Shown piece after piece: positions 5,972 to 45,771 of a stretch of 64,000 bases of DNA (within the stretch, counting starts at the first letter, position 1; every line of letters starts with the position of its first letter). This DNA is from an uncultured Gammaproteobacteria bacterium. GTDB taxonomy: Bacteria; Pseudomonadota; Gammaproteobacteria; UBA4575. Position numbers and translations under genes: made by a program. The notes under the pieces are model-generated. The model saw only the letters and a program-made list of their open reading frames with translations, made no database searches and was not told the DNA's origin. Where the stretch lies: positions 460,256-524,255 of the forward strand of contig CALSUC010000002.1 of the NCBI GenBank assembly GCA_943789445.1. Direction: 5' to 3'.

Positions 5972-6694
5972 TTATGACCGAAATAATCGGCTATATTGTT
6001 CTTCGTGATGCATGCTTGCGAATACTAATCCGGGGCAACTGGCACCAATATTGTCGTCTTCTATATCTAAGCTTGCTGTAATAACATCATCTATCAAGGG
6101 TATCAGTTGCTGTAATACATGCTGGCCAGCTGTCTGTCCCAAAGGGATCAGCTTTATGGCAACACTGACTTGATTTTCCAACCAAGCCCAAAGCAACCCA
6201 TGGAGCGCGGCTTGTTCATCTATATGCCATTCAACGCAGGCAAGGCTGAAGATCGTGGCAAAACTACATTCTTGATCTTGCCATGCGATAACTTGGGTCA
6301 GGCCCTGATTCTTCAATAATCGAACTAGAGCCATACCTAGTTGACTGTCTTCAAGACGTAATTCACGAGTTTCTCGACTGGCTAATAAGTAAGCGTTCCA
6401 ATAATGCTGTTGATCTAGATCAGCAGTCTGATGCGCTCGGTATAGGCGCAGAAATAGGGGCAATTCTTGGTATAAAAAGCTTTGCTGTAAAACTATTGTG
6501 AGCCACTGCATGAGATCTTTTTCATTCTCTATGATGCCCTGGTCACAGGCAGATTCTAAACCCTGTGAATAGGCATAAGCACCAACAGGTAAGGCTGGGC
6601 TGCTCAGGCGTAAGAGCTGTAAAAGGGCGCTAGAACTAGTGTGCATGAGAGCTATGATAGGCGCCTGATTCTGGCTCAAAAGGAGCCAGTTCAT
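5972..6694 (-). CDS. ureF: Urease accessory protein UreF
   Basis: The UreF signature [20 protein letters not shown] is present. The maximal ORF overlaps ureE by 59 nt, so the real start is likely the internal Met at 6646. Confidence 0.85.
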
Positions 6695-7094
6695 GGATTA
6701 ATTCGATGCCGAAGGCGACTACCATCTCATCTAACACATGATCTTGTAGATAGCGTGCAAAGGTAGGTTGTATTTCTATCGGTACATGACGATTGCCTAA
6801 ATGGTAACAGCAGCGTGATAGTAGAAGTGGGTCGCTACTCTTTAAGGTACTGACAGCCTCGTCAGCAGCAATGATACGTACAGTTTCATCAGTTTCAGCC
6901 TGCACAATATCTCCACCACGTAGGATGATGCCTCTGGGTAAAAATAAGCCTACTTCTTGGCCGTTATCTAGTCGTGTCTTTAGGCGTGCTTTTTGTCTTA
7001 ATTCAAAGGCCAATGTCAGGCTTAAAGCAGTGTCACTGAATGTATTGTCAATGCTCATACTGGCGGCAGAATAATGTTTAGAGAGAGTGAGCAT
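6636..7094 (-). CDS. ureE: Urease accessory metallochaperone UreE
   Basis: UreE-family similarity (LLPRGIILRGGD, CYHLGNRHVP) and a His-rich C-terminus (HSSHAH). Confidence 0.9.
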   Translation of the reverse strand: MLTLSKHYSAASMSIDNTFSDTALSLTLAFELRQKARLKTRLDNGQEVGLFLPRGIILRGGDIVQAETDETVRIIAADEAVSTLKSSDPLLLSRCCYHLGNRHVPIEIQPTFARYLQDHVLDEMVVAFGIELIHELAPFEPESGAYHSSHAH

Positions 7095-7105
7095 ATTTGA
7101 CCCTA

Positions 7106-8809: not shown

Positions 8810-8813
8810 AGTT

Positions 8814-9122
8814 TTAATCTAGATCCCCCATTATTTTCCCTTGGAAACCAAATATTTTACGTGCGCCAGCAAGTTCTATTAATTGGACTGTGCGAATTTG
8901 TCCCGGCTCAAATCGCACCGCAGTACCAGCAGGGATGTCTAGACGCATACCTTTAGTCTGCTCACGATCAAAATCTAATGCATTATTGGTCTCGTAGAAA
9001 TGGTAGTGCGAGCCGACTTGTATTGGGCGATCACCCATGTTGGAAACTACTAAGCTTTTGCGTTTGCGCCCAACATTGATCTCAATTTCGCCGTCGGCAA
9101 CGATAATTTCTCCAGGTATCAT
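8814..9122 (-). CDS. ureB: Urease beta subunit UreB
   Basis: It is 102 aa and begins MIPGEI...; it lies immediately upstream of ureC. Confidence 0.95.
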
Positions 9123-9137
9123 GCTCTACTCCAATGC

Positions 9138-9440
9138 CTAAATAATCGGTTCATGGACGGTAACTAATTTAGTGCCGTCTGGGAAAGTGGCTTCAACTTG
9201 TACCTCATGAATCATCCCAGCGATGCCATCCATGACGTCTTCTCTAGTTAAAATTTCACGACCATACTGCATTAATTCAGCAACTGTTTTGCCATCACGC
9301 GCACCCTCTAATATCTCACATGAGATGAGTGCAATAGCCTCAGGGTAATTCAGTTTCACACCTCTTTTTTTTCGCTTCTCTGCTAAAAGGCCAGCAGTGA
9401 ATAGTAATAACTTGTCTTTTTCTCTAGGTAATAATTCCAT
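9138..9440 (-). CDS. ureA: Urease gamma subunit UreA
   Basis: It is 100 aa and carries the [21 protein letters not shown]...R signature. Confidence 0.95.
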
Positions 9441-9461
9441 AATTTTTTCTACCTTTAAGTC

Positions 9462-10310
9462 TTAGGTTAACCAAATTCGTGGGATGCATGCTGGGCGTTT
9501 TAAGACTATTGGTCTGATTGTCTGCCATAGTTCTAAGAATAAGGTTTTAATCTGTTCTGCATAAGTTGCACTGGCGCGAATGACGAATATGTCTTGAATT
9601 ATGCTGCAGCCTGAGCGCAATTCTGGATGTTTTTCTAAAATATCAAGAATGATCTTTTTCTCGATTGTCTCATTATTTGCACGTATCAAAAAACTCCCAA
9701 TAGCCTCTGCAGCATGTAAGCCACAGGGTTGTGTTAAGAGTGGGCTAGAACCATCATAGCGATTACTTTCTATTAATAGTGGTTTGCCGTCTTGCCACAA
9801 TTCTAGAGTCTGAAAAATATGACCTGACTGAAACGAACGAGTTTGAGCAGGTAATCCAAGACATTGGATTTCCCATGCTAGTACACGACTATCTTTGGTG
9901 TAATCAATACGTGTGATGGTTCGTGCTTGGGCAGCATCAAAATAAACTGTCTCTTGTGGCAGCCATTCTATACTCGCACCTTCAGCGCATGTTATGCGTT
10001 GTTCTTGTTTCGCAATTGGTCCAATACTACGGTAGAACTTGGTTGCTCCCGGGGTGGTGATTAAACCATGCGCTTTAGCATCTAGTTTGACATCTAAGCG
10101 CAACTCGTCACCACCAGCGATACCTCCAGGAGGGTGTAATAAAACAACATGACAGCAATCTGACTGTTCTGGATAAAACGGTTTTTGAACCGCAAGTGGT
10201 CCAAAATGTGTTCGGTCAGTTAGAAAGGTTTTTCCATCTTTATTGATGAATTTTAAACGTAAACTAGCTTGCCACGATGAATCCCATATGGCATCTGACT
10301 GTGTGGTCAT
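9462..10310 (-). CDS. ureD: Urease accessory protein UreD/UreH
   Basis: It is 282 aa with UreD-family similarity and lies at the head of the ure structural genes. Confidence 0.85.
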   Translation of the reverse strand: MTTQSDAIWDSSWQASLRLKFINKDGKTFLTDRTHFGPLAVQKPFYPEQSDCCHVVLLHPPGGIAGGDELRLDVKLDAKAHGLITTPGATKFYRSIGPIAKQEQRITCAEGASIEWLPQETVYFDAAQARTITRIDYTKDSRVLAWEIQCLGLPAQTRSFQSGHIFQTLELWQDGKPLLIESNRYDGSSPLLTQPCGLHAAEAIGSFLIRANNETIEKKIILDILEKHPELRSGCSIIQDIFVIRASATYAEQIKTLFLELWQTIRPIVLKRPACIPRIWLT

Positions 10311-10492
10311 TTTTTAGCGATAGCAAATGCAATGATTGTGACAGGGAATGCGAGCAGGACTAGCCACTCAAAATGACTGTGTATCATCTGTAGGGGATGT
10401 GCGCTAATAGGGTGGGCGAAAATATTACTGCTATTAAGTAGCAAGATAGTGACTAATATGGATTTCACGTTCATTTGTTTTCCTCGTTGGGC

Positions 10493-11191
10493 TTATACTT
10501 TTAAATAGCGATCAATTAATTCATCGTCAAGTTTTTCTATACTACCTACTGCAACGTTACGACCTTTTTCCATAATGCAGAAATGACTGCCGACTCGACG
10601 AGCAAAGGGTAATTTTTGTTCTACTAAAAGAACAGTCAGTCCAAATTCTTGGTTTAAGCGTATTATAATATCGCCAATTTCACGAACAATATTCGGTTGT
10701 ATCCCCTCAGTAGGTTCATCCAAGATCAATAATTCAGGTTCTATTGCAAGCGCACGGCCAATAGCTAATTGCTGTTGCTGCCCTCCAGAAAGGTCTCCGC
10801 CACGACGATTTTTCATTTCTTTTAGGACTGGGAATAACTCAAATATGATATCGGGTAGTTTTTTTGAGCCACTGCTGATTAATCCTGTTTGTAAGTTTTC
10901 AGTAATACTGAGTTGAGAAAATATTTCGCGGCCTTGTGGTACATAACCAATTTTTAGCTTGGCGCGAGTTTCTGCGGTTGACTTGCTTAATTCATGTTGG
11001 CGAAAAGTGATTGAGCCTTTTCTAATCTTTTCTAAACCCATAATACTTTTTAGTAAGGTTGATTTACCAACACCATTGCGACCCATCAGGCAGGTAATGC
11101 TTCCTTCCTTAATGGCAAGTTTTAAATCCCATAGAGTATGACTTTCGCCATAATATTGGTTGATTCCATCTAACGTTAATAAATTAGCCAC
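10493..11191 (-). CDS. urtE: Urea ABC transporter ATP-binding protein UrtE
   Basis: ABC ATPase motifs (Walker A GRNGVGKST, LSGGQQQ) are present. The size and position match urtE of the branched-chain-type urea transporter. Confidence 0.85.
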   Translation of the reverse strand: MANLLTLDGINQYYGESHTLWDLKLAIKEGSITCLMGRNGVGKSTLLKSIMGLEKIRKGSITFRQHELSKSTAETRAKLKIGYVPQGREIFSQLSITENLQTGLISSGSKKLPDIIFELFPVLKEMKNRRGGDLSGGQQQQLAIGRALAIEPELLILDEPTEGIQPNIVREIGDIIIRLNQEFGLTVLLVEQKLPFARRVGSHFCIMEKGRNVAVGSIEKLDDELIDRYLKV

Positions 11192-11930
11192 CTAAGTAGA
11201 CCTCAATAACTTTCTCATTGTTGGTAATGCTATCCATAGGGCCTTCGGCTAAAACTTGACCTTGATGTAGTACGGTTACCTTATTTGCTATAAGGCGAAC
11301 AAATTCCATATCATGTTCAACTACGATAACCGATTGAGTGCGTGCTAAGTTTTGCAATAATTCAGCGGTTTTTTCGGTTTCCTGATAGGTCATGCCAGCA
11401 ACAGGCTCATCGACTAATAGGACCTGTGGATTCTGTGTGATTAGCATGCCTATTTCTAACCATTGTTTCTGGCCATGTGACAACTCGCCAGCAAGCCGAT
11501 ACTGCTCATTCGTTAGTCCGATAATTTCTAATGACTGCTCTATCTTTTCGATTTGTGGCTGCTTTAAGCGATGGAATAAATTAGCAAAGACACTACGGTC
11601 TCCTTCTAGGGCTAAGCATAGATTTTCATGTACCGTGTGCTGCTCAAATACTGTTGGCTTTTGAAACTTTCGGCCAATGCCTAGGTTGGCAATTTCTGCC
11701 TCGCTTTTGCCGATTAGATTTATATTTTCCGCAAAGATGATCTCTCCGGTATCAGGTTTTGTTTTTCCTGTAATGATGTCCATCATGGTTGTTTTGCCTG
11801 CACCATTTGGCCCAATGACACAACGTAATTCATTGCGCTCAACATAAAGGCTGAGGTTATTAATAGCCTGGAAGCCATCAAAACTAACCGATACATCATT
11901 TAGGTAGAGGATAGTTTCTTTACTTTTCAT
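11184..11930 (-). CDS. urtD: Urea ABC transporter ATP-binding protein UrtD
   Basis: ABC ATPase motifs GPNGAGKTT and LSHGQKQ are present. It overlaps urtE by 8 nt. Confidence 0.85.
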   Translation of the reverse strand: MKSKETILYLNDVSVSFDGFQAINNLSLYVERNELRCVIGPNGAGKTTMMDIITGKTKPDTGEIIFAENINLIGKSEAEIANLGIGRKFQKPTVFEQHTVHENLCLALEGDRSVFANLFHRLKQPQIEKIEQSLEIIGLTNEQYRLAGELSHGQKQWLEIGMLITQNPQVLLVDEPVAGMTYQETEKTAELLQNLARTQSVIVVEHDMEFVRLIANKVTVLHQGQVLAEGPMDSITNNEKVIEVYLGG

Positions 11931-13071
11931 CAGTACTGCCTCGCTTTAGTTTGTCACTGCTTGAATTACGCGAAAAGCGTGTGCGTAGTTGAGCATAAAG
12001 ACCGACTAAGCCTTTTGGCATGAATACGGTGACAAATACAAAGATACCACCAAGGATGAAAAGCCAGACCTCAGGGGCCCATGCTGTAAAAATAGTTTTT
12101 GCATAATTCACAACAAAGGCACCTAGGACGGCACCATATAGCGTGCCACGACCACCAATGGCGACCCAGATAACCATTTCAATGGAGCGAATAGGAGCGA
12201 ATTCACTAGGGTTTATGATACCAACCTGTGGTACGTATAAAGCGCCCGCAAGACCTGCTAATAGGGCAGAGATAACGAAGATGAAAAGTTTAATATGCTC
12301 ATCACGATAACCCATAAACCTAACTCGACTTTCAGCATCACGTATCGCCATGGTTAAACTGCCCAATCGGGACTGTGCTATGAATCTGCATATGGCATAA
12401 CCTAATAATAAAGCAGCAGCAGAGGCGATGAAAAGTGCATTGCGAGTGTTATCAGCTTGTAGGTTGAAACCAAGGATTTCCTTGAAGTCTGTGAGACCAT
12501 TGTTGCCACCAAATCCAAAGTTGTTTTGGAAGAAGGCAAGCATTAAAGCATAGGTCATAGCCTGCGTGATTATAGATAGATAGACGCCTGTTACACGTGA
12601 ACGAAACGCCAGCCAGCCGAAGACAAAAGCAAGTATTCCCGGCGCTAAAAAGACCATCAATAGCATCAATGGAAACTGGTCAAAGCCTTGCCAATACCAA
12701 GGTAACTCTGACCAGTTTAGGAAGACCATAAAATCAGGTAGTTCTGGATTGCTATAAACGCCCCTATCCCCAATCTGACGCATTAGATACATGCCCATTG
12801 CATAGCCACCTAATGCAAAGAATGCACCATGACCTAAGCTTAAAATACCTAAATAACCCCAAACCAAATCGACCGATAAGGCAAGAAGGGCATAGCATAG
12901 ATATTTCCCTATCAAGGTCACACTATAGGTTGAGACATGAAATTCTGAGTCTGAAGGTATGATTAAGTTACAGACTGGAACAATGACTGCGAGTGCAATG
13001 CAGCAGAAAGTGAGTACACGACTTCCGGTATCATTTAATAACAGCCGACCAATGAGTGAATGCTGAAGCAT
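11920..13071 (-). CDS. urtC: Urea ABC transporter permease UrtC
   Basis: It is a branched-chain-amino-acid-type permease (LivM-like), overlapping urtD by 11 nt. Confidence 0.85.
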   Translation of the reverse strand: MLQHSLIGRLLLNDTGSRVLTFCCIALAVIVPVCNLIIPSDSEFHVSTYSVTLIGKYLCYALLALSVDLVWGYLGILSLGHGAFFALGGYAMGMYLMRQIGDRGVYSNPELPDFMVFLNWSELPWYWQGFDQFPLMLLMVFLAPGILAFVFGWLAFRSRVTGVYLSIITQAMTYALMLAFFQNNFGFGGNNGLTDFKEILGFNLQADNTRNALFIASAAALLLGYAICRFIAQSRLGSLTMAIRDAESRVRFMGYRDEHIKLFIFVISALLAGLAGALYVPQVGIINPSEFAPIRSIEMVIWVAIGGRGTLYGAVLGAFVVNYAKTIFTAWAPEVWLFILGGIFVFVTVFMPKGLVGLYAQLRTRFSRNSSSDKLKRGSTDEK

Positions 13072-13074
13072 GAC

Positions 13075-14727
13075 TTAGTTCTCGGCTGAACGACCCTTCA
13101 GAGCAAACATACCCCTAGGTCGTTTTTGAATGAATAATATGATGAAGACTAAGATCACTACCTTTGCAATAACAGCACCGGTCATTGGCTCTAAATATTT
13201 ATTTGCGATGCCTAGGGTCATTGCACCAAAGAACGTACCCCATAAATTACCAACACCACCAAATACCACCACCATAAAGGAATCAATAATGTAGGCTTGG
13301 CCTAAATTAGGACCAACGTTAGTGAGCTGGCTAAGTGCAACACCAGCCATGCCAGCGATACCTGAGCCTAAGCCAAAGGTATAAGCATCGATCCAATCAG
13401 TACGAATACCCATGGCCTTAGCCATGGTGCGATTTTGTGTGACGGCACGTACTTGAAGTCCAAAACGTGTTTTCTGTAAAAGCAGCATTAAACCGATTAA
13501 TACTGCTATCGAAAATAGAATGATATAGAGGCGGTTATAGGTTAGTGCTAAAGCAGGATTGATTTGCAAAGAGCCACTCATCCATTCTGGAGTAGCTACT
13601 GCTCTATTTTGTGGTGAGATTATGGTGCGTACAGCTTGCTGTAGTATTAAGCTAATACCGAAAGTTGCGAGCAAAGTTTCTAAAGGACGGCCATAAAGAT
13701 GGCGAATTATGCTGCGTTCGATAATAACGCCAACCAGTGCAGTGAAGACAAAGGCAATCGGAATTGCGATCAGAGGTGAGTAAGCAATCGCGTTAGGCAT
13801 GATTTGCTGAATAATATAGGTAGTGTAGGCGCCTAACATAAGCATCTCGCCATGAGCCATATTGATTACACCCATAACACCAAAGGTGATGGCTAGGCCA
13901 ACTGCAGCTAGTAGTAAAACAGAGCCCAGACTGACACCAAAGAAGATGTTTTCAAGCTGTTTATACCAGCCTAGCTTAAAATCAATTTTTTCTATGCTGG
14001 CTTCTAGAGTGTGTTTTAGTTCTTGTTTTTCTGTGCTTAGAGGGTTTCCAGTGATACTTCTTAAGCCATTGCTTAAGGTATTTTTAACTTCAGGGTAGAG
14101 CGAATTAGAAAGCGTTTTTACTGCGCTAAGTTGTTCGTCGACACTGCCATTCTTGAATGAATATAAAGCGATGCCGGTTTGCATAATTTCGACTATAGAG
14201 TCATCTTTTTCTATGGTCAGCCGGCCTGTAAATAATTGAAGGCCACTTTTATTGATGTCTTTGAGGATTTCTTCAGCTGCTTGCTGGCGCACTGCTTTGT
14301 TCGGACTGTCCAAGGAGAGTTTGGCAATCTCCACTTTAAGTTGACGTCTTAGTTTATTATTAATACCTACTTTTTTAATTCTTTTTTTTGCGATAACACC
14401 TAAATCAGTGCCGCTAATAGCGTTACGTATCACAGCGTTTTTATTATCCAACTTGGCAATAACGATAGTTTTTGTTTTCTTCAGAAAATAGATATTGCCA
14501 TCTAAAAGTTGCTGAAGGATGACTAGCGCTTGTGAGTCTTTTGAGGTGGCGATAGCCTGTATATATTCTTTTTTCTTTGTGAAACTCTTTGATGAGAGGC
14601 CATTGATAGCGTCATGGAAGATGGTTTCTGAGATGGTGTCCGGTTTTATTTCTATGTCGTTAGACCAACTTAGGCCTGCACTGAATAAGCTGCCACATAA
14701 GATAAGTAGAAGAGCGAAATTTCGCAT
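13075..14727 (-). CDS. urtB: Urea ABC transporter permease UrtB, long form with ~250-aa N-terminal periplasmic domain
   Basis: The C-terminal 300 aa form a LivH-like permease. The N-terminus has a signal peptide plus a soluble domain. Confidence 0.8.
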   Translation of the reverse strand: MRNFALLLILCGSLFSAGLSWSNDIEIKPDTISETIFHDAINGLSSKSFTKKKEYIQAIATSKDSQALVILQQLLDGNIYFLKKTKTIVIAKLDNKNAVIRNAISGTDLGVIAKKRIKKVGINNKLRRQLKVEIAKLSLDSPNKAVRQQAAEEILKDINKSGLQLFTGRLTIEKDDSIVEIMQTGIALYSFKNGSVDEQLSAVKTLSNSLYPEVKNTLSNGLRSITGNPLSTEKQELKHTLEASIEKIDFKLGWYKQLENIFFGVSLGSVLLLAAVGLAITFGVMGVINMAHGEMLMLGAYTTYIIQQIMPNAIAYSPLIAIPIAFVFTALVGVIIERSIIRHLYGRPLETLLATFGISLILQQAVRTIISPQNRAVATPEWMSGSLQINPALALTYNRLYIILFSIAVLIGLMLLLQKTRFGLQVRAVTQNRTMAKAMGIRTDWIDAYTFGLGSGIAGMAGVALSQLTNVGPNLGQAYIIDSFMVVVFGGVGNLWGTFFGAMTLGIANKYLEPMTGAVIAKVVILVFIILFIQKRPRGMFALKGRSAEN

Positions 14728-14804
14728 GGTTATTCACTGGGTTAAAGATTACTGGGCACTTTCTTGTGCCCAGTGATCTTATGCTTAAGCTTAAGCGGTT
14801 CGAT

Positions 14805-16106
14805 TTAAAAGTTTTGCCCTGAGCACTTCTTGGTTTCTGTGTTGTAGTTACCACAGTTGATTGCTGGATCAGCCCAGTCCGACACAATGACTGCGCTTTC
14901 TGGTAGGAAGTCAGTCCAAGCATCACCGACTACTTCACCTTCAGTCTGCCAAACGATTTCAAATTGACCATCATCTTGAATCTCACCAATGAGTACTGGT
15001 TTTGATAGATGGTGGTTAGAGTTCATTACCGCTGTACCACCGGTTAAGTTAGGTAAAGACAGGCCATACATTGCTGGTCGTACTTTATCGACTTCAGTGC
15101 TGTCTACTTTACTAACTGCTTCGGCCCACATCTTAAAACCAATGTATGTTGCTTCCATTGGATCATTAGTTACGCGTGAATCATCACCAATGAAGCTCTG
15201 CCACGTTTCAATGAAGGTGTCATTGGTATCGCTCTCAGCTGATTGGAAATAGTTCCATGCTGCTAGATGACCGACTAGAGGTGTGGTATCGATGCCTGAT
15301 AATTCTTCTTCGCCAACAGAGAATGCAACGACTGGAATATTATCTGCAGAGAGACCTTGGTTACCCAGCTCTTTGTAGAAGGGTACGTTTGCATCACCAT
15401 TAATGGTGGAAACAACAGCAGTTTTCTTGCCAGTTGAACCAAATGATTTGATATCAGAGACAATAGTCTGCCAGTCAGAATGACCAAATGGAGTGTAGTT
15501 AATCATGATGTCTTTTGCAGCAACACCTTTGAGCTTTAGGTAAGACTCTAAGATTTTATTGGTAGTGCGTGGGTAAACGTAATCGGTGCCCGCTAAGACC
15601 CAACGCTTAACGCCTTGATCCATTAAGTAATCTACTGCAGGAATGGCTTGTTGATTAGGTGATGCACCAGTGTAAAAGACATTTTTAGATGACTCTTCAC
15701 CCTCATACTGCACTGGGTAAAATAAGAGGCCATTTAGTTCTTCTACTACAGGTAACACGGATTTGCGTGAAACAGACGTCCAGCAACCGAAAATGACATC
15801 TACTTCATGTACTTCGATAAGCTCACGCATTTTTTCAGCAAACAAAGGCCAGTCAGATGCAGGATCAACTACTACAGCTTCTAATTTTTTACCTAGTAAA
15901 CCACCAGCTTTATTTTGTTCTTCGATCATCATTAAAACGGTGTCTTTTAATGTGGTCTCACTGATTGCCATAGTGCCAGATAAGGAATGTAAAACACCTA
16001 CCTTAATAGTGTCGCTATGATCATCGGCTTGTGCACTCAGACTAAACAGGCTGAGTGTTAACAAACAAATGCTTAATAGAGAATGTTTCTTCATTGTGTA
16101 CTCCAT
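14805..16106 (-). CDS. urtA: Urea ABC transporter substrate-binding protein UrtA
   Basis: It is a 433-aa periplasmic binding protein with a signal peptide, of the LivJ/UrtA family. A GGAG RBS precedes the start codon. Confidence 0.9.
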   Translation of the reverse strand: MEYTMKKHSLLSICLLTLSLFSLSAQADDHSDTIKVGVLHSLSGTMAISETTLKDTVLMMIEEQNKAGGLLGKKLEAVVVDPASDWPLFAEKMRELIEVHEVDVIFGCWTSVSRKSVLPVVEELNGLLFYPVQYEGEESSKNVFYTGASPNQQAIPAVDYLMDQGVKRWVLAGTDYVYPRTTNKILESYLKLKGVAAKDIMINYTPFGHSDWQTIVSDIKSFGSTGKKTAVVSTINGDANVPFYKELGNQGLSADNIPVVAFSVGEEELSGIDTTPLVGHLAAWNYFQSAESDTNDTFIETWQSFIGDDSRVTNDPMEATYIGFKMWAEAVSKVDSTEVDKVRPAMYGLSLPNLTGGTAVMNSNHHLSKPVLIGEIQDDGQFEIVWQTEGEVVGDAWTDFLPESAVIVSDWADPAINCGNYNTETKKCSGQNF

Positions 16107-25150: not shown

Positions 25151-25684
25151 TTAAGGTCTAGCCAATATGATTTTGAGAATAAATTGGGCGATTTCCTCAG
25201 GATTGTTTAGATCTAGCTGAGGAATATCCCGTTCTACCTGCAGTTTTTCATCACTAGCAATCGCGATAACGTGATCATCTTTTTCGCAGAGTAGAGGCAA
25301 GCCTAGAGACGGACGATGTAACTCAATCTTACCAATAGGCTCTTTTTTAAACCCCTCGACCAAGATTAAATCAGCAGCGTCAAAATCCAACTGTTGGATC
25401 AGTTGATCTAAAGAGGCCTCATCTTGTTCACTTGCATGATCATGCATTAGCGCCCAGCGATTAGCCGAAGAGATTAACATTTGCTTGGCACCGGCTTGGC
25501 GCAAACGGTAACTGTCTTTGTTTGGATGGTCGATATCAAAGGCATGATGCGCATGCTTAATCATCGCAATACGGACACCGTTCGCCACTAATAGAGGGAT
25601 CAACTGGGTTAGCAAGGTCGTCTTACCAGTACCGCTAAAGGCACAAAATCCCAGAATAGGCAGTGGACAATCGTGATAACTCAT
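25151..25684 (-). CDS. mobB: Molybdopterin-guanine dinucleotide biosynthesis adaptor MobB
   Basis: The P-loop GTGKTTLL is present and the product is 177 aa. Confidence 0.85.
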   Translation of the reverse strand: MSYHDCPLPILGFCAFSGTGKTTLLTQLIPLLVANGVRIAMIKHAHHAFDIDHPNKDSYRLRQAGAKQMLISSANRWALMHDHASEQDEASLDQLIQQLDFDAADLILVEGFKKEPIGKIELHRPSLGLPLLCEKDDHVIAIASDEKLQVERDIPQLDLNNPEEIAQFILKIILARP

Positions 25685-25688
25685 AGGT

Positions 25689-26285
25689 TTAAGGCTTTAG
25701 TTGTTGGCCGAGGTTGGTTAAATCCTCGCGCGAATTTACATTGGTGAAGATGTCAGATCGATCTGAGAAATCACATTCTGCATAGCCTTCTTGCTGATAC
25801 CAAAGGTCAATTTTACGATCACCGCGGGCTAAGAAGTCTAACAGACTTGGTAGTAATGATTGATGCAGTAAGGCATATACCGGCTGTAGACGCTTGCCAT
25901 CACTAGCGACGCTAATCTGAGCGCCTTGTGCTACAGCACTTTGATGTAAGCGTTGTACATAGTCATTACAGAGTAGGGGGCCATCACAGGGTGCTGTCAC
26001 CATGTAGTCTGTTGAGCATTGCTTCAGGCCGCTAGCAAAACCGGCTAGAGGGCCTTGAAAATCACTTAATTCATCACGGATAACTGGGTGACCATAAGCT
26101 TGGTATTGGTCAACGCTGCGATTTGCATTGATGGCTACAGATTGAACCTGTGGTGCTAGTGATGCGAGTACGTACTCGATCATTGCTTGGCCATTAAGCA
26201 AGACTAATCCTTTGTCTTCGCCGCCCATACGCTGAGCACGACCACCCGCAAGAATCAGGCCTGAGATGTTATCATGTGGATACAT
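25689..26285 (-). CDS. mobA: Molybdenum cofactor guanylyltransferase MobA
   Basis: GLILAGGRAQRMGG is present and the product is 198 aa. Confidence 0.85.
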   Translation of the reverse strand: MYPHDNISGLILAGGRAQRMGGEDKGLVLLNGQAMIEYVLASLAPQVQSVAINANRSVDQYQAYGHPVIRDELSDFQGPLAGFASGLKQCSTDYMVTAPCDGPLLCNDYVQRLHQSAVAQGAQISVASDGKRLQPVYALLHQSLLPSLLDFLARGDRKIDLWYQQEGYAECDFSDRSDIFTNVNSREDLTNLGQQLKP

Positions 26286-26837: not shown

Positions 26838-27602
26838 ATGAGTGAGAGTGAGTTAAGCGATCAGCAGCTGTTGCGTTATAGTCGACAGATTATGTTGCCA
26901 CAGCTAGATGTGTCTGGGCAGCAGCGTCTATTAGATGCGCGTGTACTGATATTAGGTGCTGGTGGCTTAGGTTGTCCGTTAGCCCTATACCTAGCAAGCA
27001 GCGGTGTTGGACATATCACTATCGTTGATGATGATGTGGTTGAACTCTCTAATCTGCAGCGTCAAATTCTATATACCGACGCTGATGTTGGTCGACTTAA
27101 AGCTGAAGTGGTATGTGAACGTTTGGCGGTCGTTAATCCAGAGGTCACAGTAAATGCTATTTGTCAGCGGCCGAATTCAGAAGACTTGAGCCGCCTGATT
27201 AAGGAGGTCGACTTGGTCTTAGATGGTACCGATAACTTCACTTCTCGCTATCAGCATAACCGTGCATGTATAGCACTGAAAAAGCCGTTGTTGTCAGCCT
27301 CTGTTATCCGCTTTGAAGGCCAGTTAATGTACTTTCATCCGACTATGGATGGCCCTTGCTATGCCTGTCTTTATCCTTCAGCTAATGATGTGGATGAAAA
27401 CTGTAGTGAAAATGGTGTGTTAGCGCCGGTTGCAGGTGTTATGGCGACGGCAATGGCGACAGAGGCCTTAAAGCAACTTTTGAAAATAGGGGCTAGCAGT
27501 ATCGGCCGTCTGCATTTATTTGATGCGTTAGCCATGGAATGGCGCACAGTAAAGGTCAAGGCTGATCCTGAATGTTCTGATTGCGCCACATGCCGAATCT
27601 AA
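26838..27602 (+). CDS. moeB: Molybdopterin-synthase adenylyltransferase MoeB (ThiF family)
   Basis: The nucleotide-binding motif GAGGLGCP and a C-terminal CxxC pair are present; the product is 254 aa. Confidence 0.85.
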   Translation: MSESELSDQQLLRYSRQIMLPQLDVSGQQRLLDARVLILGAGGLGCPLALYLASSGVGHITIVDDDVVELSNLQRQILYTDADVGRLKAEVVCERLAVVNPEVTVNAICQRPNSEDLSRLIKEVDLVLDGTDNFTSRYQHNRACIALKKPLLSASVIRFEGQLMYFHPTMDGPCYACLYPSANDVDENCSENGVLAPVAGVMATAMATEALKQLLKIGASSIGRLHLFDALAMEWRTVKVKADPECSDCATCRI

Positions 27603-33888: not shown

Positions 33889-35067
33889 TTAGGCGAGCTG
33901 CTGCAAGCCCTTAATCAAGCGTTGCATGCCGATATCGACGTTGTCTGAAGTCAGTGCACCATAAGAAACCCTAAGATAACCCTCTGTTGCAAAGGCGCTA
34001 CCAGGAATGGTGGCGACGCCATTTTCACGTATTAAATGATGAGCGGTTTCTAGATCGCTAAGCCTGCTTTGAATGCGTGCAAAGATATAAAAAGCGCCCT
34101 CTGACTGTACTCTTTGGCGCAAGACCCCTGAATCATTTAAGGCCTGTAAGCACAGTGCACGTGAGTTTTTGATCTCATTTAAGTGTGTTTGTAAGTAATG
34201 CGTATCGGCCTGCAAAGCGCCTAAGGCGGCAAGCTGAGAGACGATTGGGGGTGATATTAAGACCGTGTCTTGAACCTTGCGCAGCGTGTCTGCGAGCTCG
34301 GCAGGTACTAACATATAGCCCACACGCCAACCAGCAAAGCCATAGGCCTTGGAGAAGGAATAGAGGCTGATCGTATGGGCGGCGCTATTGTTCAAGCTAG
34401 CAGCAGAAAAATGTTCGGTGTCTTCAAACACAAAGTCTTCATAAGCTTCATCTGAAATATGATAAAGGCCATGTTGCTCGCACAGTTGATTGATTTCAGT
34501 CAGTTCTTCTTGGCTGTAGACTGCGGCACTCGGGTTATTAGGTGAAACAGTCACTATCGCTTTAGTGCGTGCTGTGATGTTGTTTTTGATGGCATCTAGA
34601 TCAGGATGAAAATTGTCTAAGGTAGGTGTTAATACTGCTTTAGCATTAGCCAGAGTAATGGCCATCTCATGATTGAAATAGAACGGCGTCAGCAGGATAA
34701 CCTCATCATCTGGGTCGAGCAGGGCCAACATCAAAGAGCTAAAGGCCATATTCGAGCCGGCAGTGACAAAGATTTCTTGCCCTTGATCAAAGCGGATCTG
34801 ATTTTTTTGTTCAAGCTTGTGGCGTAAAGCGGCTACTAGCTCTGGGATACCTTGTACCGGTCCATAGAGGTCCAGCTGTTTCTCATGTAAGCGATCTTCT
34901 ACTGCCGCTAGAGCTTCTTGAGGCGGAGAGAAAAAGGCAATGCCCTGACCTAATGAAATAGTCCCGGGGTGCTGACGAACCCAGCCATTGATGGTTGGAA
35001 TAATAGGGCTTCTAACCGCTGCACTACGTGCGCTGGGGCTGAGAAGGGCTGGAGTGGTGTCAGGCAT
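33889..35067 (-). CDS. Class I/II PLP-dependent aminotransferase
   Basis: It carries SFSKAYGFAGWRVGY with the PLP-lysine. The start is set at ATG 35065-35067, 4 nt after the stop of the upstream VWA gene. Confidence 0.8.
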   Translation of the reverse strand: MPDTTPALLSPSARSAAVRSPIIPTINGWVRQHPGTISLGQGIAFFSPPQEALAAVEDRLHEKQLDLYGPVQGIPELVAALRHKLEQKNQIRFDQGQEIFVTAGSNMAFSSLMLALLDPDDEVILLTPFYFNHEMAITLANAKAVLTPTLDNFHPDLDAIKNNITARTKAIVTVSPNNPSAAVYSQEELTEINQLCEQHGLYHISDEAYEDFVFEDTEHFSAASLNNSAAHTISLYSFSKAYGFAGWRVGYMLVPAELADTLRKVQDTVLISPPIVSQLAALGALQADTHYLQTHLNEIKNSRALCLQALNDSGVLRQRVQSEGAFYIFARIQSRLSDLETAHHLIRENGVATIPGSAFATEGYLRVSYGALTSDNVDIGMQRLIKGLQQLA

Positions 35068-35071
35068 GGCG

Positions 35072-37339
35072 TTACATCGTGATTCGTCTATAAATGTCCG
35101 ACACCTTATACGGTAATTTATCGACCTGGTCGACAATCGTGAAGTTTACTGGACCATACATATGTTTTAGGTAGTCTGCAGATTCTGTATCAATGGTGAT
35201 GCAGAAAGGATGAATACCCAAGAACTTTGCCTCGACTAAGGCGCGACGGGTGTCTTCAATGCCATAGACGCCACGATAGCCATCTTGGTCATCAGGCCGG
35301 CCATCGGATAGTGTAATCAATAGCTTACTCTTTGCTTCAACCTTGCTTAAGAGCTTACTCAGGTGACGGATGGCGACGCCCATGCGTGTATAGTCTTGCG
35401 GCTTGATACCTGCAATACGCGCCTTTACTTCCTTTGAATAAGGCTCATCAAATTCTTTGATCCGATATAGATCACAACGCTGATGGGTTCTGCCAGAAAA
35501 ACCATAGATGGCATACTGGTCACCTAAGAGTTGTAAAGATTCACACAGTAAGATCAATGCTTCACGCTCCATATCATTAATCCAACCAGAGGTAGAGCCG
35601 CTCATATCAACCATAAACATGACTGCAATATTGCGGTCGACTTTTCGTTGTTTGATAAAGAGGTTTTGACTTAACTCATGGCCATTGATGATATCGGCAT
35701 AGGATTCAATGACTGCATCTAGATCAATATCCTCACCATATGGTTGCTTGCGTAAGCGACGGTTATCGTCACGTAAGGCCTCAAAGGTACGGTTTAAACT
35801 CTTCATCAAACCATAGTGTTTTTTCAGAGTCTTGGCGGCAAAGTCTGATGTGATGGCAGGTACTGTCTGCTCATATAGGTGGCAGTAATCTTTGCGGTAT
35901 TTCTGGCGTGAGTGGTCCCACTCATCATACAAGGCAAGCGGCTCACCTAATGCTTCATTCTGTTCACTTTCAGCTGCGGCATTATCGTTATCAGTACTAG
36001 CCTTGTCTTCATTAGTCTCTAAGTATTCTTCTGGGATATCACCTACATCTTGTTGGATTGAATTCAACAGCTCTTGGATATCTTCTGGTATATCGACGGT
36101 CTTACCATCAAGCTCTAGATCATAACGATAGCCATCTGGACGTTGGTCATCTTCTACTTCGCGTAGCTCAAAGTTTTCTTCATCGGCGTCACCTTCGCCC
36201 GGCATCGTATCTGTGCCTGACATCAATTCTTCACGTAATTCAGTCAACTTCTCTTGCAGCTCAGCTTTTTCTTGATCTGTGCGTTCCTGAATCTTGCTAT
36301 TTGCCAGCTCTGGGTCTAATTCACCTTGATATAGCGTACGTTCTGGCAAATAAGCTTGGTCGTAAAGGGCGTAGAGTAGTTCCGCCGTATCGTGCACGGT
36401 CGCCTCTGGTGTCGATAGCTTTTCGATCGCCTGCTGCCAAGTGACAGGCAGGTCTGTCGCCGCTAGCAATGAATTAAATTGACGCATGGCGCGAGCGATA
36501 CCGGGTAGCTCCCGTTCTATCTGTTTGTCTAGACGTACGGTCTCTAAGGCATGGAATAGATTTAATGCGCGCTCACTGTCTTTAAAGGTAGCGACTAACT
36601 GTTGAATATTGATCCGGAAGGTACCGAACCAAGTTTGTGCCCATTGGTGTATGGCGATTGATTTATACAGCGCAAAGTTCTCTTCACGCGTCTTAAATTC
36701 ACTCAAACGTGCAGGGAGGTGCAAGGTTTCAGTATCGGTAAAGAGGTTTTCACTACTCTCTAAATTTAGTGAACGACCATTAAGACCCAACACAATACTT
36801 TCAACAACGCGGGATATTTCATCGTAGCTGACTGAGCTGGGTGCACTGCTTTTGCTAGCGACATATTGTTCTATCGCCTGCATTTCAGTAATTGCAGCCT
36901 GCACATCATGCGCTCGGTATTGACTGAGTATATGTTCAAGCCAATCAGCCCAGGCACCTTCGTCTAGTAACATCAGGGCGGGCGGGGCAAGGTGGCAGAA
37001 ATGGTAAGAGAGTTCGGCGTTTGCGTCTGAGACAGTAGTAGCGGATTGAATAAAACGTTCTTGGTCAGCCAGACTAAACTGAGTGAGCTGTTGTGCTGGT
37101 GCAAAGACACTGCGTGCGGTGGTTAATACCTGATCGACGACGAGTTCTAGGCGGAGCTGGATTTCCCGCTCACTCATTCCGCCATAAATGGAACCATTCT
37201 GATTGCGTCCGGCACGATCTAAGGACTGAATGAAACCGCCATCCTTTGAATAGGCCTTAATCTCGTACTGGTACTCAGGGTCTGCTGGTGCAGCTGTTGT
37301 GGATTTGCTCTTGTCGCGGCGCCAAAATCTGAAGTTCAT
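35072..37339 (-). CDS. NorD/CobT-like large VWA-domain protein
   Basis: It has a C-terminal VWA domain with a MIDAS motif (DMSGSTSG) and a long acidic linker; the product is 755 aa. No MoxR/CbbQ ATPase gene is nearby. Confidence 0.7.
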   Translation of the reverse strand: MNFRFWRRDKSKSTTAAPADPEYQYEIKAYSKDGGFIQSLDRAGRNQNGSIYGGMSEREIQLRLELVVDQVLTTARSVFAPAQQLTQFSLADQERFIQSATTVSDANAELSYHFCHLAPPALMLLDEGAWADWLEHILSQYRAHDVQAAITEMQAIEQYVASKSSAPSSVSYDEISRVVESIVLGLNGRSLNLESSENLFTDTETLHLPARLSEFKTREENFALYKSIAIHQWAQTWFGTFRINIQQLVATFKDSERALNLFHALETVRLDKQIERELPGIARAMRQFNSLLAATDLPVTWQQAIEKLSTPEATVHDTAELLYALYDQAYLPERTLYQGELDPELANSKIQERTDQEKAELQEKLTELREELMSGTDTMPGEGDADEENFELREVEDDQRPDGYRYDLELDGKTVDIPEDIQELLNSIQQDVGDIPEEYLETNEDKASTDNDNAAAESEQNEALGEPLALYDEWDHSRQKYRKDYCHLYEQTVPAITSDFAAKTLKKHYGLMKSLNRTFEALRDDNRRLRKQPYGEDIDLDAVIESYADIINGHELSQNLFIKQRKVDRNIAVMFMVDMSGSTSGWINDMEREALILLCESLQLLGDQYAIYGFSGRTHQRCDLYRIKEFDEPYSKEVKARIAGIKPQDYTRMGVAIRHLSKLLSKVEAKSKLLITLSDGRPDDQDGYRGVYGIEDTRRALVEAKFLGIHPFCITIDTESADYLKHMYGPVNFTIVDQVDKLPYKVSDIYRRITM

Positions 37340-37345
37340 AGCTAT

Positions 37346-38068
37346 TTAATCTGTAATTTGAGCGATCAGCAGATCCCGTGCTTGGTTAATCTTGACGGCT
37401 AAATAACTAGAGCCACCGCGATCAGGGTGAATTTTCTGCATCAACTGTTTATGTGCTTTCAGAATACTCTGTTTATCGGCCCCTGGCTCTAGTCCAAGGA
37501 TTGCATAAGCCTCATTTTCTGATAGTTGTGCAGTACTAGTTTCTTCTGTTTTATTCGACTGGTTTTGAGCGCGCCATTCAGTGCCATGGGTTCTGTCGAT
37601 GTAATTACCTAGTAATTGTTCGGAGTCAGGGTCTAGTTTTAGATAGCTTTGATACAGTTCTAACAGCTGATTTTGGTTTAATTGTTGTAACTCCATGCCT
37701 ACATGTAGGCCGCTTTTAACGCTGCCGGAGAGCTGCCCGCTGTCGTGATCTAGGCTCATACTTAAGTATTGGGTCTCCACCAATGACTGCTGACCATTGC
37801 TAGGCGCGTTATTACTCACGCGATTGAATACACCACGTAATAGGGGGGCATAGCGTAATAGACCGAACAGGCGCCTTACGACAGGAATCGCCGCACCTAT
37901 CAAGGCAAATAACCAATGCATGCGTCCGGTCGCAACCAGTATCAGCAAAACACCAGCGATAAGCATGGCGATTACCTTCCAGCGTTTCTCCACCGGTTGT
38001 CGTTTGAGCCAACGGACTAAGACCAAGGCGGCGATAATCGCGAGGATAAGTAGGACAATGCGTGCCAT
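37346..38068 (-). CDS. J-domain membrane protein (DjlA-like architecture)
   Basis: It has two N-terminal TM helices and a C-terminal J domain with HPD (AYAILGL...KIHPDRGG). Confidence 0.75.
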   Translation of the reverse strand: MARIVLLILAIIAALVLVRWLKRQPVEKRWKVIAMLIAGVLLILVATGRMHWLFALIGAAIPVVRRLFGLLRYAPLLRGVFNRVSNNAPSNGQQSLVETQYLSMSLDHDSGQLSGSVKSGLHVGMELQQLNQNQLLELYQSYLKLDPDSEQLLGNYIDRTHGTEWRAQNQSNKTEETSTAQLSENEAYAILGLEPGADKQSILKAHKQLMQKIHPDRGGSSYLAVKINQARDLLIAQITD

Positions 38069-38071
38069 AAA

Positions 38072-38764
38072 TTATTTTGCAGGTAGTTGTTTGATTAATT
38101 GCTTGAGTAAGGCATTTTTACCTTGATCGTGTTGCTGTAAGGCCTTTACTCCACCGACGGCATAGCTTGCCACAGCGGCTAATAATTCTCTCAGTTGTGC
38201 CAAGCTGTTTTCATCAAAGCGACAATAAGCACCGTTGCTGAGTTGGCTTAAATGACGAAAGGCCTTTTCGGCACTGCTGTTGTATCCTTCTTGAAAAATA
38301 AACAAGGGGATTCCTAAAAGACCGAGGCGGGCGGCATCATGTGCGATTGTATCGATAGATTCTTCAAAGCAATCGGCGACTAATACGACAGCCTTCATCT
38401 TTTGTTTGCTGCCTTGGCTGACGGCATGACCTAAAACCTGTCCTATCTGTGTGTGTCCAGCGAGGCAGCAGACGCTGCGCATTTGTTTTTGCAGAACAGT
38501 GCTGTTTTGACTCCATGGGAAGCTATGAAATTCACCGATGCCACGGTAATAGCACAGGCTGATCTCTAAACCTGCCGCTGCTGCAAACATGTCAGACTGA
38601 ATTTGACAGGCCATGTTCCAGCTAGCTTCTCGGCTAGCGGTAGCATCCATGGCAAATAATAGGCGACCCTTGGCCTTATCTTGGGCCTGTGTATTAGGCA
38701 GGTGTTGCTTGCTAGCCGCTAGGAAAGCCTTTACTGAGCTAGTGGTGGAGAGGTCTTTTGGCAT
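38072..38764 (-). CDS. Small VWA-domain protein
   Basis: It has a MIDAS-like DATAS motif and a Rossmann-like core; the product is 230 aa. Confidence 0.6.
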   Translation of the reverse strand: MPKDLSTTSSVKAFLAASKQHLPNTQAQDKAKGRLLFAMDATASREASWNMACQIQSDMFAAAAGLEISLCYYRGIGEFHSFPWSQNSTVLQKQMRSVCCLAGHTQIGQVLGHAVSQGSKQKMKAVVLVADCFEESIDTIAHDAARLGLLGIPLFIFQEGYNSSAEKAFRHLSQLSNGAYCRFDENSLAQLRELLAAVASYAVGGVKALQQHDQGKNALLKQLIKQLPAK

Positions 38765-38914
38765 ATCAGTTTAGATTCCGATGAGTTTCAACTTTCTTAG
38801 CCTAGATGCTAGCGAAGGCGCTTGGGGTAAAGCAAGTACTAGTCTTATTGCTCGTAACTTAAGCAGCCTGACTACGATACATAAGCTACACTGTTTTTTT
38901 TATTTGATGATGTT

Positions 38915-43169: not shown

Positions 43170-44198
43170 ATGACGAATCCAGTTGACCAATTTGATCGGC
43201 CTATGCGCGATCTTAGAATTTCAGTGACCGATCGCTGCAATTTTCGTTGTACCTATTGTATGCCAAAAGAGGTTTTCAATTCGAAATATCAATTTCTACC
43301 GCGTACTGACTTACTCTCATTTGAAGAAATCACCCGTCTAGCTGGATTATTCGCTGCGCAGGGCGTGCGTAAGTTACGTCTTACCGGTGGTGAACCACTG
43401 CTGCGTAAGAACCTCGATGTCTTGGTCACTGAGCTGGCTAAGATAGACGGTATAGAAGACATTGCCTTGACTACTAATGCTTCCATCTTAACCTTGCCAC
43501 GTGCAGAGCAGCTACGTGATGCAGGCCTAGATCGTATTACTGTCAGTTTAGATGCGATTGATGAACAACGCTTCCGACAGATGAATGATATGGATGTATC
43601 AGTCGAGAAGGTATTACAAGGTATCGACAATGCGGAGCGTGCCGGCTTTGATAACATCAAGGTCAACATGGTCGTACAAAAAGGCGTCAACGAAGAAGAG
43701 ATCGTGCCGATGGCGCGGTACTTCAAAGATAGTAAGCAGATTTTGCGATTTATCGAATTTATGGATGTTGGTACGACTAATGGCTGGAATCTCGAGCAAG
43801 TGGTTTCAGGGCAAGAAATCGTCGAAAGAATTAGCGAGCATTTTGAGTTGGAACCTTTAGACCCCAATTATCGTGGTGAAGTCGCTAAACGCTGGCGTTA
43901 TGTCGATGGTGGCAACGAGTTTGGTTTGATTACCTCGGTGACTGAAGCCTTCTGTGGTGATTGTAGCCGTGTTCGATTATCTGCTAAGGGTAGTGTTTAT
44001 AGTTGTTTATTTGCTTCACGCGGTACGGACTTACGTCATCTATTGCGAGGTGGTGCAAATGACGAGGTCGTCAATGCAGTCATCGCAGATATGTGGAAGG
44101 CGCGTAGTGATCGTTATTCTGAGATTCGTGGTGCAGGAGAATCTACGGCAGAAGAGCATGTCTTAGAAAAAGTCGAGATGTCCTACATCGGTGGCTGA
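43170..44198 (+). CDS. moaA: GTP 3',8-cyclase MoaA
   Basis: It has the radical-SAM CNFRCTYCMP motif and a C-terminal Cys cluster; the product is 342 aa. Confidence 0.92.
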   Translation: MTNPVDQFDRPMRDLRISVTDRCNFRCTYCMPKEVFNSKYQFLPRTDLLSFEEITRLAGLFAAQGVRKLRLTGGEPLLRKNLDVLVTELAKIDGIEDIALTTNASILTLPRAEQLRDAGLDRITVSLDAIDEQRFRQMNDMDVSVEKVLQGIDNAERAGFDNIKVNMVVQKGVNEEEIVPMARYFKDSKQILRFIEFMDVGTTNGWNLEQVVSGQEIVERISEHFELEPLDPNYRGEVAKRWRYVDGGNEFGLITSVTEAFCGDCSRVRLSAKGSVYSCLFASRGTDLRHLLRGGANDEVVNAVIADMWKARSDRYSEIRGAGESTAEEHVLEKVEMSYIGG

Positions 44199-44589
44199 AG
44201 ACACTAGCAACAGCAGTTTATTCGATCAAATCGGTGGCCAAACGGCGGTCTTTAATCTAGCCGATCAATTCTATCTAGTGATGCAACGTGAAGCAGAGTT
44301 GTCAAAGTTACTCGTGATGCATCCTAGTAATCTCACGCGTTCGCGTAAAAAATTAGCAGGATACCTCTGCCAATGGTTCGGTGGACCAGCCTTATTTGGA
44401 GAAGACTACATGTCTGCTGAATGGATCAGGCAGCGGCATCAGCACTTACAGATTGGTTTTGAAGAGCGAGATCAATGGCTGCGTTGTATGCATCTTGCGA
44501 TGAAAGATCTAGGTTATAACGATCAACTCAGACATGCCTTGGGCCGAAAGTTTTTTCAGCTAGCAGGGTTTATTAGGACCACAGTTTAG
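44191..44589 (+). CDS. Group II truncated hemoglobin (2/2 Hb, GlbO-like)
   Basis: FDQIGGQTAVFNLADQFY matches the trHbO N-terminus. The GTG start overlaps the moaA stop. Confidence 0.7.
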   Translation: MAEDTSNSSLFDQIGGQTAVFNLADQFYLVMQREAELSKLLVMHPSNLTRSRKKLAGYLCQWFGGPALFGEDYMSAEWIRQRHQHLQIGFEERDQWLRCMHLAMKDLGYNDQLRHALGRKFFQLAGFIRTTV

Positions 44590-45258: not shown

Positions 45259-45771
45259 ATGCAGGGTTTGGTGAAAAAGAATAGACTAAGCACAGTCCAT
45301 TTCCTTGCAGACAGCATGATTATTGAATTATTTGCAGAGCCTTTCGACCCCTGGTCTTGGCTGCAGAATTACCAACAGGCCCAATCCACCATGGCTGAAT
45401 CCGCAGTCGGCCATAAGGTGGGTGCGACTAATGTGTTTGTTGGCACTATGCGTGATTTTAACGAGGGTGACGATGTCCAAAGTATGGTCTTAGAGCATTA
45501 TTCAGGTATGACCGAAAAGCATCTGACAGCGATTGCGCAAGATGCTATGGAACAATGGGATATCGAAGATATTGCGATTGCACATCGCTATGGTGAGGTT
45601 TTTCCAGGGGATACCTTGGTTTGTATTGTAGTCTGGTCATCTCACCGTAAAGCAGCGTACGAGGCTAATCGTAGGGTCATGGAAGATCTGAAATCGAAGG
45701 CACCGTTCTGGAAAAAAGAAACCTTGAGCGAAGGATATCGCTGGGTAGCAAAGAATACCAAAGGTTATTAA
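45259..45771 (+). CDS. moaE: Molybdopterin synthase catalytic subunit MoaE
   Basis: HYSGMTEKHL...APFWKKE matches MoaE. An alternative start at ATG 45316 is possible, and no moaD lies upstream. Confidence 0.8.
   Translation: MQGLVKKNRLSTVHFLADSMIIELFAEPFDPWSWLQNYQQAQSTMAESAVGHKVGATNVFVGTMRDFNEGDDVQSMVLEHYSGMTEKHLTAIAQDAMEQWDIEDIAIAHRYGEVFPGDTLVCIVVWSSHRKAAYEANRRVMEDLKSKAPFWKKETLSEGYRWVAKNTKGY

Follow-up and report, generated by a model that had tools for sequence, protein, structure and literature searches.

The stretch of DNA analysed here, a window of 64,000 nucleotides (nt) on contig CALSUC010000002.1 of an uncultured gammaproteobacterium of the UBA4575 lineage (assembly GCA_943789445.1), carries on its minus strand four co-directional open reading frames (ORFs) that occupy positions 38764-33889 and encode proteins of 230, 240, 755 and 392 amino acids (aa), respectively (Table 1). 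These are a small von Willebrand factor A (VWA) protein, a membrane J-domain protein (J-protein), a large VWA protein that by homology is an adaptor of the NorD/CbbO family, and a class I pyridoxal phosphate (PLP) aminotransferase. The same four gene calls had been made in a first-pass annotation of this DNA and are supported by Pfam, NCBIfam and fold matches. However, the four genes, which that annotation had taken as one system, are not conserved together: the first two form a pair that is found free-standing in many proteobacteria, while the J-protein, large VWA and aminotransferase genes are found together in one clade only. The cluster is thus a composite, a lineage-specific join of separate parts.

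The tight packing of the genes described previously is borne out by the ORF map and by the spacers, which as read from the sequence measure 3, 6 and 4 nt; of the 4, 7 and 4 bp given before, only the third value stands. The 392-aa ORF is taken from the ATG at 35067, 4 nt past the stop codon of the 755-aa gene. Upstream of the operon lies an EamA transporter gene in divergent orientation, and downstream a 4HBT thioesterase gene in convergent orientation. No convincing internal promoter or terminator was found within the operon by consensus scan, nor was a convincing sigma-32-like or sigma-70-like promoter found upstream of the small VWA gene by consensus scan and sequence inspection. There is no Rfam match near the operon, and no tRNA was found.

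Table 1. Features of the operon, of the rest of the window and of related loci. Positions are those of the window unless a locus (L) is named.
Feature	Position	Strand	Basis or remark
Intergenic region, 150 nt	38765..38914	.	Between the operon and the divergent EamA gene; presumed promoter region, from ORF map and sequence
Small cytosolic VWA protein, 230 aa	38072..38764	-	AlphaFold2 model, Foldseek, invariant residues of the metal-ion-dependent adhesion site (MIDAS)
Small VWA protein, D40-x-T42-x-S44	38633-38647		MIDAS-type motif
Membrane J-protein, 240 aa	37346..38068	-	Pfam DnaJ, orthologue alignments, sequence reading
J-protein, three hydrophobic segments, about aa 1-72	37853-38068		N-terminus
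J-protein, middle domain, aa 96-165	37574-37783		About 70 aa, conserved
J-protein, J domain, aa 184-240	37349-37519		C-terminal
J-protein, HPD motif, residues 214-216	37421-37429		Within the J domain
NorD/CbbO-family adaptor, 755 aa	35072..37339	-	phmmer against PDB NorD, invariant columns, region-wise conservation, Pfam VWA_2
Adaptor, pore-finger region, aa 525-570	35630-35767
Adaptor, C-terminal tail, aa 741-755	35075-35119
Class I PLP aminotransferase, 392 aa	33889..35067	-	Last gene of the unit; Pfam, NCBIfam, PDB match
Urease structural and accessory cluster	within 5337-16106
Urease alpha-subunit gene	7106-8809	-
5_ureB_sRNA match (Rfam)	8374-8660	+	Antisense, inside the urease alpha-subunit gene
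MobA/MobB	25151-26285		Molybdenum cofactor
ThiF-like gene	26838-27602		Listed with the molybdenum-cofactor genes
MoaA	43170-44198		Molybdenum cofactor
Bacterial globin ORF	44191-44589	+	Overlaps the end of the MoaA gene
MoaE	45259-45771		Molybdenum cofactor
NorD/CbbO-like proteins of about 1000 aa	L047-L053, L056, L060-L062, L064, L073, L075, L078-L081, L085, L087-L089 (e.g., L049 9077-12118)		Outgroup loci
Sulfur-oxidiser loci with Hdr-like genes	L052 2925-9066; L089; L077; L065; L176 2576-10990		Outgroup loci

The first gene of the operon encodes a protein that by sequence remains below the Pfam VWA_2 cut-off (16.6 bits against 27). Its AlphaFold2 model (predicted local distance difference test score, pLDDT, 89; predicted template modelling score, pTM, 0.83) matches the VWA folds of BatB, the TFIIH subunit p44 and the integrin I-domain with a Foldseek probability of 1.00, BatB (3ibs_A) being the closest. 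On this model the protein has a Rossmann-like VWA fold equipped with MIDAS residues, and the D40-x-T42-x-S44 motif, T105 and D131 are invariant across 40 members of the family. A profile of the protein searched against PDB sequences gave no significant match, and the best one, to a thioesterase (E = 0.0097), is taken as spurious. The family comprises 928 clusters at 50% identity (E <= 1e-10) and spans Alpha- and Gammaproteobacteria, where its members are named just "hypothetical protein" or "VWA domain-containing" in the databases. In the gammaproteobacterial relatives C53, C100 and C181 are invariant and C71 is present in at least 90% of the sequences, while in the wider family C100 alone is nearly invariant; these cysteines may form a metal or redox site peculiar to the clade.

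The second protein of the operon has at its C-terminus a J domain (Pfam DnaJ, 31 bits; cut-off 27.8), a kind of domain known to activate the DnaK ATPase. No variation of its HPD (histidine-proline-aspartate) motif is seen among the 41 orthologues aligned (34 in one set and 7 in another, including those of Azospirillum and Microvirga). While this agrees with the first-pass annotation, the two transmembrane segments recorded there are, in the orthologue alignments, three hydrophobic segments, and the J domain, which had been considered the sole recognisable feature of the protein, is accompanied by a conserved middle domain. The first loop is positively charged, because of which the C-terminal part of the protein would face the cytoplasm. 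The occurrence of the middle domain follows that of the small VWA gene. Both are present in 60 loci and the small VWA gene is never found without the domain (0 loci), whereas in loci that lack the small VWA gene the domain is kept in 10 and missing in 13. Since it is lost only where the small VWA gene has gone, the middle domain is probably the docking site that holds the small VWA protein. Some J-proteins of the clade are reduced to the anchor and the J domain, with a length of about 160 aa.

Two known types of membrane J-protein resemble this one in layout. Like the type III J-protein DjlA of Escherichia coli, it is anchored in the membrane at its N-terminus and ends in a J domain with HPD motif, with a non-J region between the two, but it differs in having three hydrophobic segments and another middle domain. 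The match to the NCBIfam DjlA family (PRK09430) is weak (E = 5.9e-8, 32.6 bits) and lies so far under the cut-off of 162 bits that an assignment as DjlA is ruled out. To our knowledge, DjlA is also not paired with a dedicated VWA protein, unlike the J-protein described here. The second resemblance is to Tim14/Pam18, the J-protein that works with Tim16/Pam16 in the mitochondrial import motor, which is likewise small and membrane-anchored and has a J domain ending in HPD-x-GGS...KIN.A..LL; the short J-proteins of the clade, consisting solely of anchor and J domain, are similar in this respect. Precomputed Pfam Pam16 matches are recorded for some orthologues, and the J-protein itself scores 14.1 bits against this family (cut-off 30.3). 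The setting here, however, is bacterial and without a Tim23-like partner, and the likeness comes from a reading of the motif. Judged by profile score, the J-protein belongs to neither DjlA nor Tim14/Pam18 in spite of the similar layout.

The association between the small VWA protein and the J-protein extends well beyond the window. Metagenomes were scanned with the small VWA alignment, which yielded 80 loci, 65 of which had at least 400 bp downstream and could be tested. In 64 of these 65 a full-length J gene lies directly behind the small VWA gene, usually after a gap of 1-13 nt. The other neighbours of the pair are unrelated among these loci, and the large VWA gene comes next in only six, all of them relatives from the clade. 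Two J homologues of about 45% identity (L091 and L092) have a small VWA homologue upstream and neither a large VWA nor an aminotransferase gene behind; in the metagenome-assembled genome (MAG) GCA_039768325.1 of Thiogranum, which contains L092, the pair and a cbbQ gene with its large VWA gene (L089) lie on different contigs. Adjacent genes annotated as 'VWA domain-containing protein' and 'DnaJ domain-containing protein' are present in Azospirillum brasilense, and in Microvirga sp. VF16 the pair is likewise present, its J-protein being built in the same way. The small VWA protein and the J-protein are therefore a widespread free-standing pair of Alpha- and Gammaproteobacteria. No published description of a bacterial pair of a VWA protein and a J-protein was found in the open-access literature, including a census of vWA systems (PMC7159879), an absence that is weak evidence, and in the same literature the combination of all four genes, which the first-pass annotation had considered undescribed, was not found either.

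What is understood of bacterial VWA adaptors concerns almost exclusively their work with MoxR-class AAA+ rings, as in NorQD, CbbQO and RavA-ViaA. The small pair shares with RavA-ViaA and BatA/BatB the logic of a MIDAS adaptor combined with an ATP-driven remodeller, and its VWA fold is nearest to that of BatB. It differs from these systems in that the gene partner is a J-domain co-chaperone, which implies Hsp70, and not an AAA+ ATPase.

The 755-aa protein encoded by the third gene belongs by homology to the other, well-known kind of adaptor. NorQ-NorD inserts the FeB iron into cytochrome c-type nitric oxide reductase (cNOR) and CbbQ-CbbO acts as a Rubisco activase, and each consists of a MoxR-class AAA+ hexamer and a VWA adaptor. 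The 755-aa protein passes the Pfam VWA_2 cut-off (29.2 bits; cut-off 27), and its C-terminal 290 aa or so match the NorD chain 9qhd_G of the PDB (phmmer, E = 2.6e-49; query residues 462-753 aligned with residues 348-643 of the 646 in the chain), with a second NorD chain, 9qh6_G, at E = 8.5e-42; both chains come from recent cryo-EM structures of NorQD. This homology covers the finger, the VWA domain and the C-terminus, while the N-terminal two thirds of the protein match NorD only faintly. The layout is nevertheless that of NorD and CbbO, with an N-terminal domain (aa 1-345), a long acidic linker (aa 346-465), the finger, a VWA domain with MIDAS residues (D578, S580, S582, T651 and D679, invariant in 15 orthologues) and a short C-terminal tail. 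Other assignments were rejected, as there is no CobT match and the scores for VWA_CoxE (15.8 bits; cut-off 26.4) and DUF58 are below cut-off; no NCBIfam family matched the protein. Of the earlier label NorD/CobT-like, the profile scores thus uphold NorD, extended to CbbO, and speak against CobT as well as CoxE. What is missing is the gene context of the family: cbbQ or norQ is neither adjacent nor elsewhere in the window, and the gene adjoins those of a membrane J-protein and an aminotransferase instead of nitric oxide reductase (NOR) or Rubisco genes, none of which appears nearby in the Pfam labels of the neighbours or in the ORF map of the window.

The origin of this arrangement can be followed in a scan of one genome per species with the alignment of the 755-aa protein, which returned 80 loci whose ORFs were called and searched with the four proteins of the window. 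The 32 loci whose large VWA protein is at least 52% identical to that of the window all have the J gene followed by the large VWA and aminotransferase genes, and none of the 48 loci with at most 51% identity carries a J or aminotransferase gene. In a neighbour-joining tree the J-linked loci form one monophyletic clade, apparently of uncultured marine and invertebrate-associated Gammaproteobacteria, in every genome of which 4-30 nt separate the J gene from the large VWA gene behind it. The small VWA gene is kept in only about half of this clade, in which it was lost several times. The other half of the family tree looks different: directly upstream of the large VWA gene, 21 of 47 loci encode a 270-aa protein with AAA_5 and CbbQ_C domains that is named CbbQ, NirQ, NorQ or GpvN. 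Because of these 21 loci, in which the arrangement is that of NorQ-NorD and CbbQ-CbbO, the large VWA family is considered a normal CbbQ/NorQ partner family. The other 26 outgroup loci have no cbbQ or norQ within 10 kb, and a search for an alternative conserved partner upstream of these unlinked genes found none. Sister groups of the J-linked clade (a low-GC marine group in which the gene lies beside recA-recX-alaS; L035) belong to those in which the link to cbbQ was already missing; cbbQ was thus not replaced in its position by the J gene. Rather, an adaptor gene that was already unlinked came to lie behind a J gene.

Several of the related loci have features of their own. About 25 outgroup loci encode a NorD/CbbO-like protein of about 1000 aa with an extra N-terminal domain of about 300 aa that resembles S-adenosylmethionine-dependent methyltransferases (Pfam Methyltrans_SAM, 24.6 bits, under the cut-off of 27). 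In MAGs of sulfur oxidisers (Thiogranum, Thiohalobacter and Acidiferrobacterales) the cbbQ/norQ-like and large VWA genes adjoin divergent genes for HdrA/MvhD(FlpD)-, HdrC- and HdrB(CCG)-like proteins and TusA, often with a class II ribonucleotide reductase gene downstream, and an Hdr/Qmo-like complex could be the target of the CbbQ-VWA pair in these organisms. The MAG JBFGJY01 contains two large VWA genes, one J-linked and one of the outgroup type without cbbQ or J gene nearby (L041 and L074), which are either paralogues or the result of bin contamination. Finally, a 755-aa protein identical to that of the window, with identical surroundings, is found in L001 (GCA_017891565.1, contig JAAVJM011119723.1, 223 kb); the contig numbering of this assembly exceeds 1.1 million, which suggests that it is metagenome-like or host-associated and not derived from an isolate.

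An adaptor of this family normally acts with an AAA+ ring, and the first-pass annotation was right that the window contains no MoxR/CbbQ ATPase; a MoxR-class gene is also absent within about 10 kb in the 32 related species-level genomes. Information on the motor comes from the adaptor itself. NorD docks onto NorQ with its last residues and with a finger that reaches into the pore, and its linker is required for metal insertion (PMC13036017). In the J-linked clade the finger and the tail align without loss with those of the CbbQ-linked relatives, and the mean column conservation is 0.80 compared with 0.81 for the finger and 0.92 compared with 0.96 for the tail. The consensus sequences of the two groups are nearly identical (e.g., KLPYKVSDIYRRITM in the clade and KLPLKVSDIYRRLTT in the CbbQ-linked relatives). 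Such conservation is hard to explain if the ring is gone, and the likeliest motor for the 755-aa adaptor, as far as its sequence tells, is therefore a CbbQ/NorQ-type hexamer encoded elsewhere in the genome.

The last gene of the operon encodes what looks like an intact, ordinary class I PLP aminotransferase. The translation contains the SFSK motif with the PLP lysine, matches Pfam Aminotran_1_2 (E = 2.4e-66) and the generic NCBIfam family PRK05957 (512.7 bits; cut-off 498), has 7vrx_A as its closest solved structure (E = 2.2e-65) and resembles aspartate and aromatic aminotransferases.

The reading that we prefer, and to which we give slightly better than an even chance, is that the operon joins two chaperone-adaptor modules in a way particular to this clade, a transaminase being added at the 3' end. 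The first module would be the old free-standing pair. Its J-protein would be anchored in the inner membrane by the three hydrophobic segments and, through a J domain with intact HPD motif, would activate the ATPase of DnaK at the membrane, while the middle domain would hold the small VWA protein, and this in turn may bind or select the client with its invariant MIDAS face. In this way the pair would represent an Hsp70-driven counterpart of the MoxR-VWA pairs. The second module would be the 755-aa adaptor working with a CbbQ/NorQ ring encoded in trans. The aminotransferase may be a client of this second module, given that the genes of Rubisco and NOR adjoin those of their adaptors, or else a passenger.

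Several observations weigh against this composite of two modules. Not a single CbbQ/NorQ-like ORF is detected in the 64-kb window, even at E <= 10, and none is found in about 0.9 Mb of related loci. A 13-sequence CbbQ profile was run against a set of 5.8 billion proteins, and all 120 matches listed are of the outgroup type, the search being saturated by outgroup sequences and thus saying little about the genomes of the clade; two matches that were followed up (P0333 and P0336) again come from outgroup loci, with Hdr/Qmo-like neighbours. The AlphaFold2 model that a 15-sequence alignment gave for the 755-aa protein is poor (pLDDT 51.5, with the VWA half below 50). Moreover, in all 23 clade loci that lack the small VWA gene, the J gene is still directly upstream of the large VWA gene and its HPD motif is intact, and this retention of the J-protein without its VWA partner hints at a link to the large adaptor. 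The flanking synteny, with EamA upstream and an S41 peptidase gene downstream, is also kept across the clade, and because of this wider conservation the adjacency of the J and large VWA genes is weak evidence either way.

The link between J-protein and large adaptor is taken furthest if the MoxR-class motor has been lost, the adaptor is driven by DnaK recruited through the J-protein and the four genes form one membrane-anchored maturation machine. The short distance between the two genes throughout the clade, the survival of the HPD motif where the small VWA protein is gone and the lack of a cbbQ-like ORF in the window and in related loci would fit such a machine. It is nonetheless improbable, as the finger and tail, with their known roles (PMC13036017), are as conserved as in the CbbQ-linked relatives, outside the clade large VWA genes are commonly found unlinked and without a J gene nearby, the sister groups already lacked the link to cbbQ, which means that no replacement in place occurred, and the J-protein family is widespread without the large VWA protein. 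The proposal of the first-pass annotation that DnaK is recruited rather than MoxR is weakened by the same facts, namely that 26 of 47 outgroup loci and the sister groups are unlinked and that the docking elements are conserved; that no AAA+ gene lies next door is in itself a weak reason to infer DnaK, given how commonly the large VWA gene is unlinked in the outgroup. A fuller version, in which the marine clade has lost the CbbQ/NorQ motor, DnaK powers the adaptor through the J-protein, the aminotransferase is the protein matured or reactivated and the pair constitutes a new Hsp70-driven class of VWA systems, is in our opinion decidedly improbable.

The opposite possibility is that the modules are unrelated and that a large VWA gene and a housekeeping aminotransferase gene landed behind the pair once, the order persisting through slow rearrangement. 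The wider synteny conserved around the cluster, the occurrence of both modules apart from each other elsewhere and the fit of the aminotransferase to a generic NCBIfam family, close to aspartate and aromatic aminotransferases, are all consistent with this. However, the very short spacers without internal promoter or terminator and an order of J, large VWA and aminotransferase genes that does not change in any of the 32 species-level genomes, at identities as low as 52%, are less easily accounted for, and we regard this explanation as somewhat unlikely. VWA proteins are also frequent in conflict systems (PMC7159879), which raises the question of whether the cluster could be a vWA-centred anti-phage or conflict system. 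Such systems need MoxR or GTPase cores (PMC7159879), which are absent here; none of the four proteins matches any PADLOC model at E <= 0.01, there is no effector domain, and the chromosomal position is stable with conserved synteny, so that a role in defence is extremely improbable.

If the composite of two modules is correct, its novelty would lie in the small pair, in which, as proposed, the combination of a VWA adaptor with an ATP-driven chaperone would be realised with Hsp70 and a J-protein in place of MoxR. VWA adaptor logic would then be coupled to Hsp70, giving DnaK a dedicated, membrane-localised device for client selection. The presence of the pair in cultured and genetically tractable Azospirillum makes it accessible, and the operon of the window, being the one place where the pair meets a NorD/CbbO-type adaptor, provides a natural test of whether motors are shared or swapped. 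Should the large adaptor merely use a CbbQ encoded elsewhere, the operon would be unremarkable and the interest would rest with the pair alone.

Outside the operon, the window contains a cluster of structural and accessory urease genes that adjoins a five-gene ATP-binding cassette (ABC) transporter, presumed to be for urea. The Rfam match to 5_ureB_sRNA in this cluster (107.7 bits; gathering score 40) is probably due to the conserved coding sequence rather than to a real small RNA (sRNA). Genes for the synthesis of the molybdenum cofactor (MoaA, MoaE and MobA/MobB), together with a ThiF-like gene, are scattered around the operon. The bacterial globin ORF next to MoaA, which corresponds to a Pfam Bac_globin match in the identical locus L001, shares 8 nt with the end of the MoaA gene, and this overlap suggests that the globin is translationally coupled to molybdenum-cofactor synthesis.

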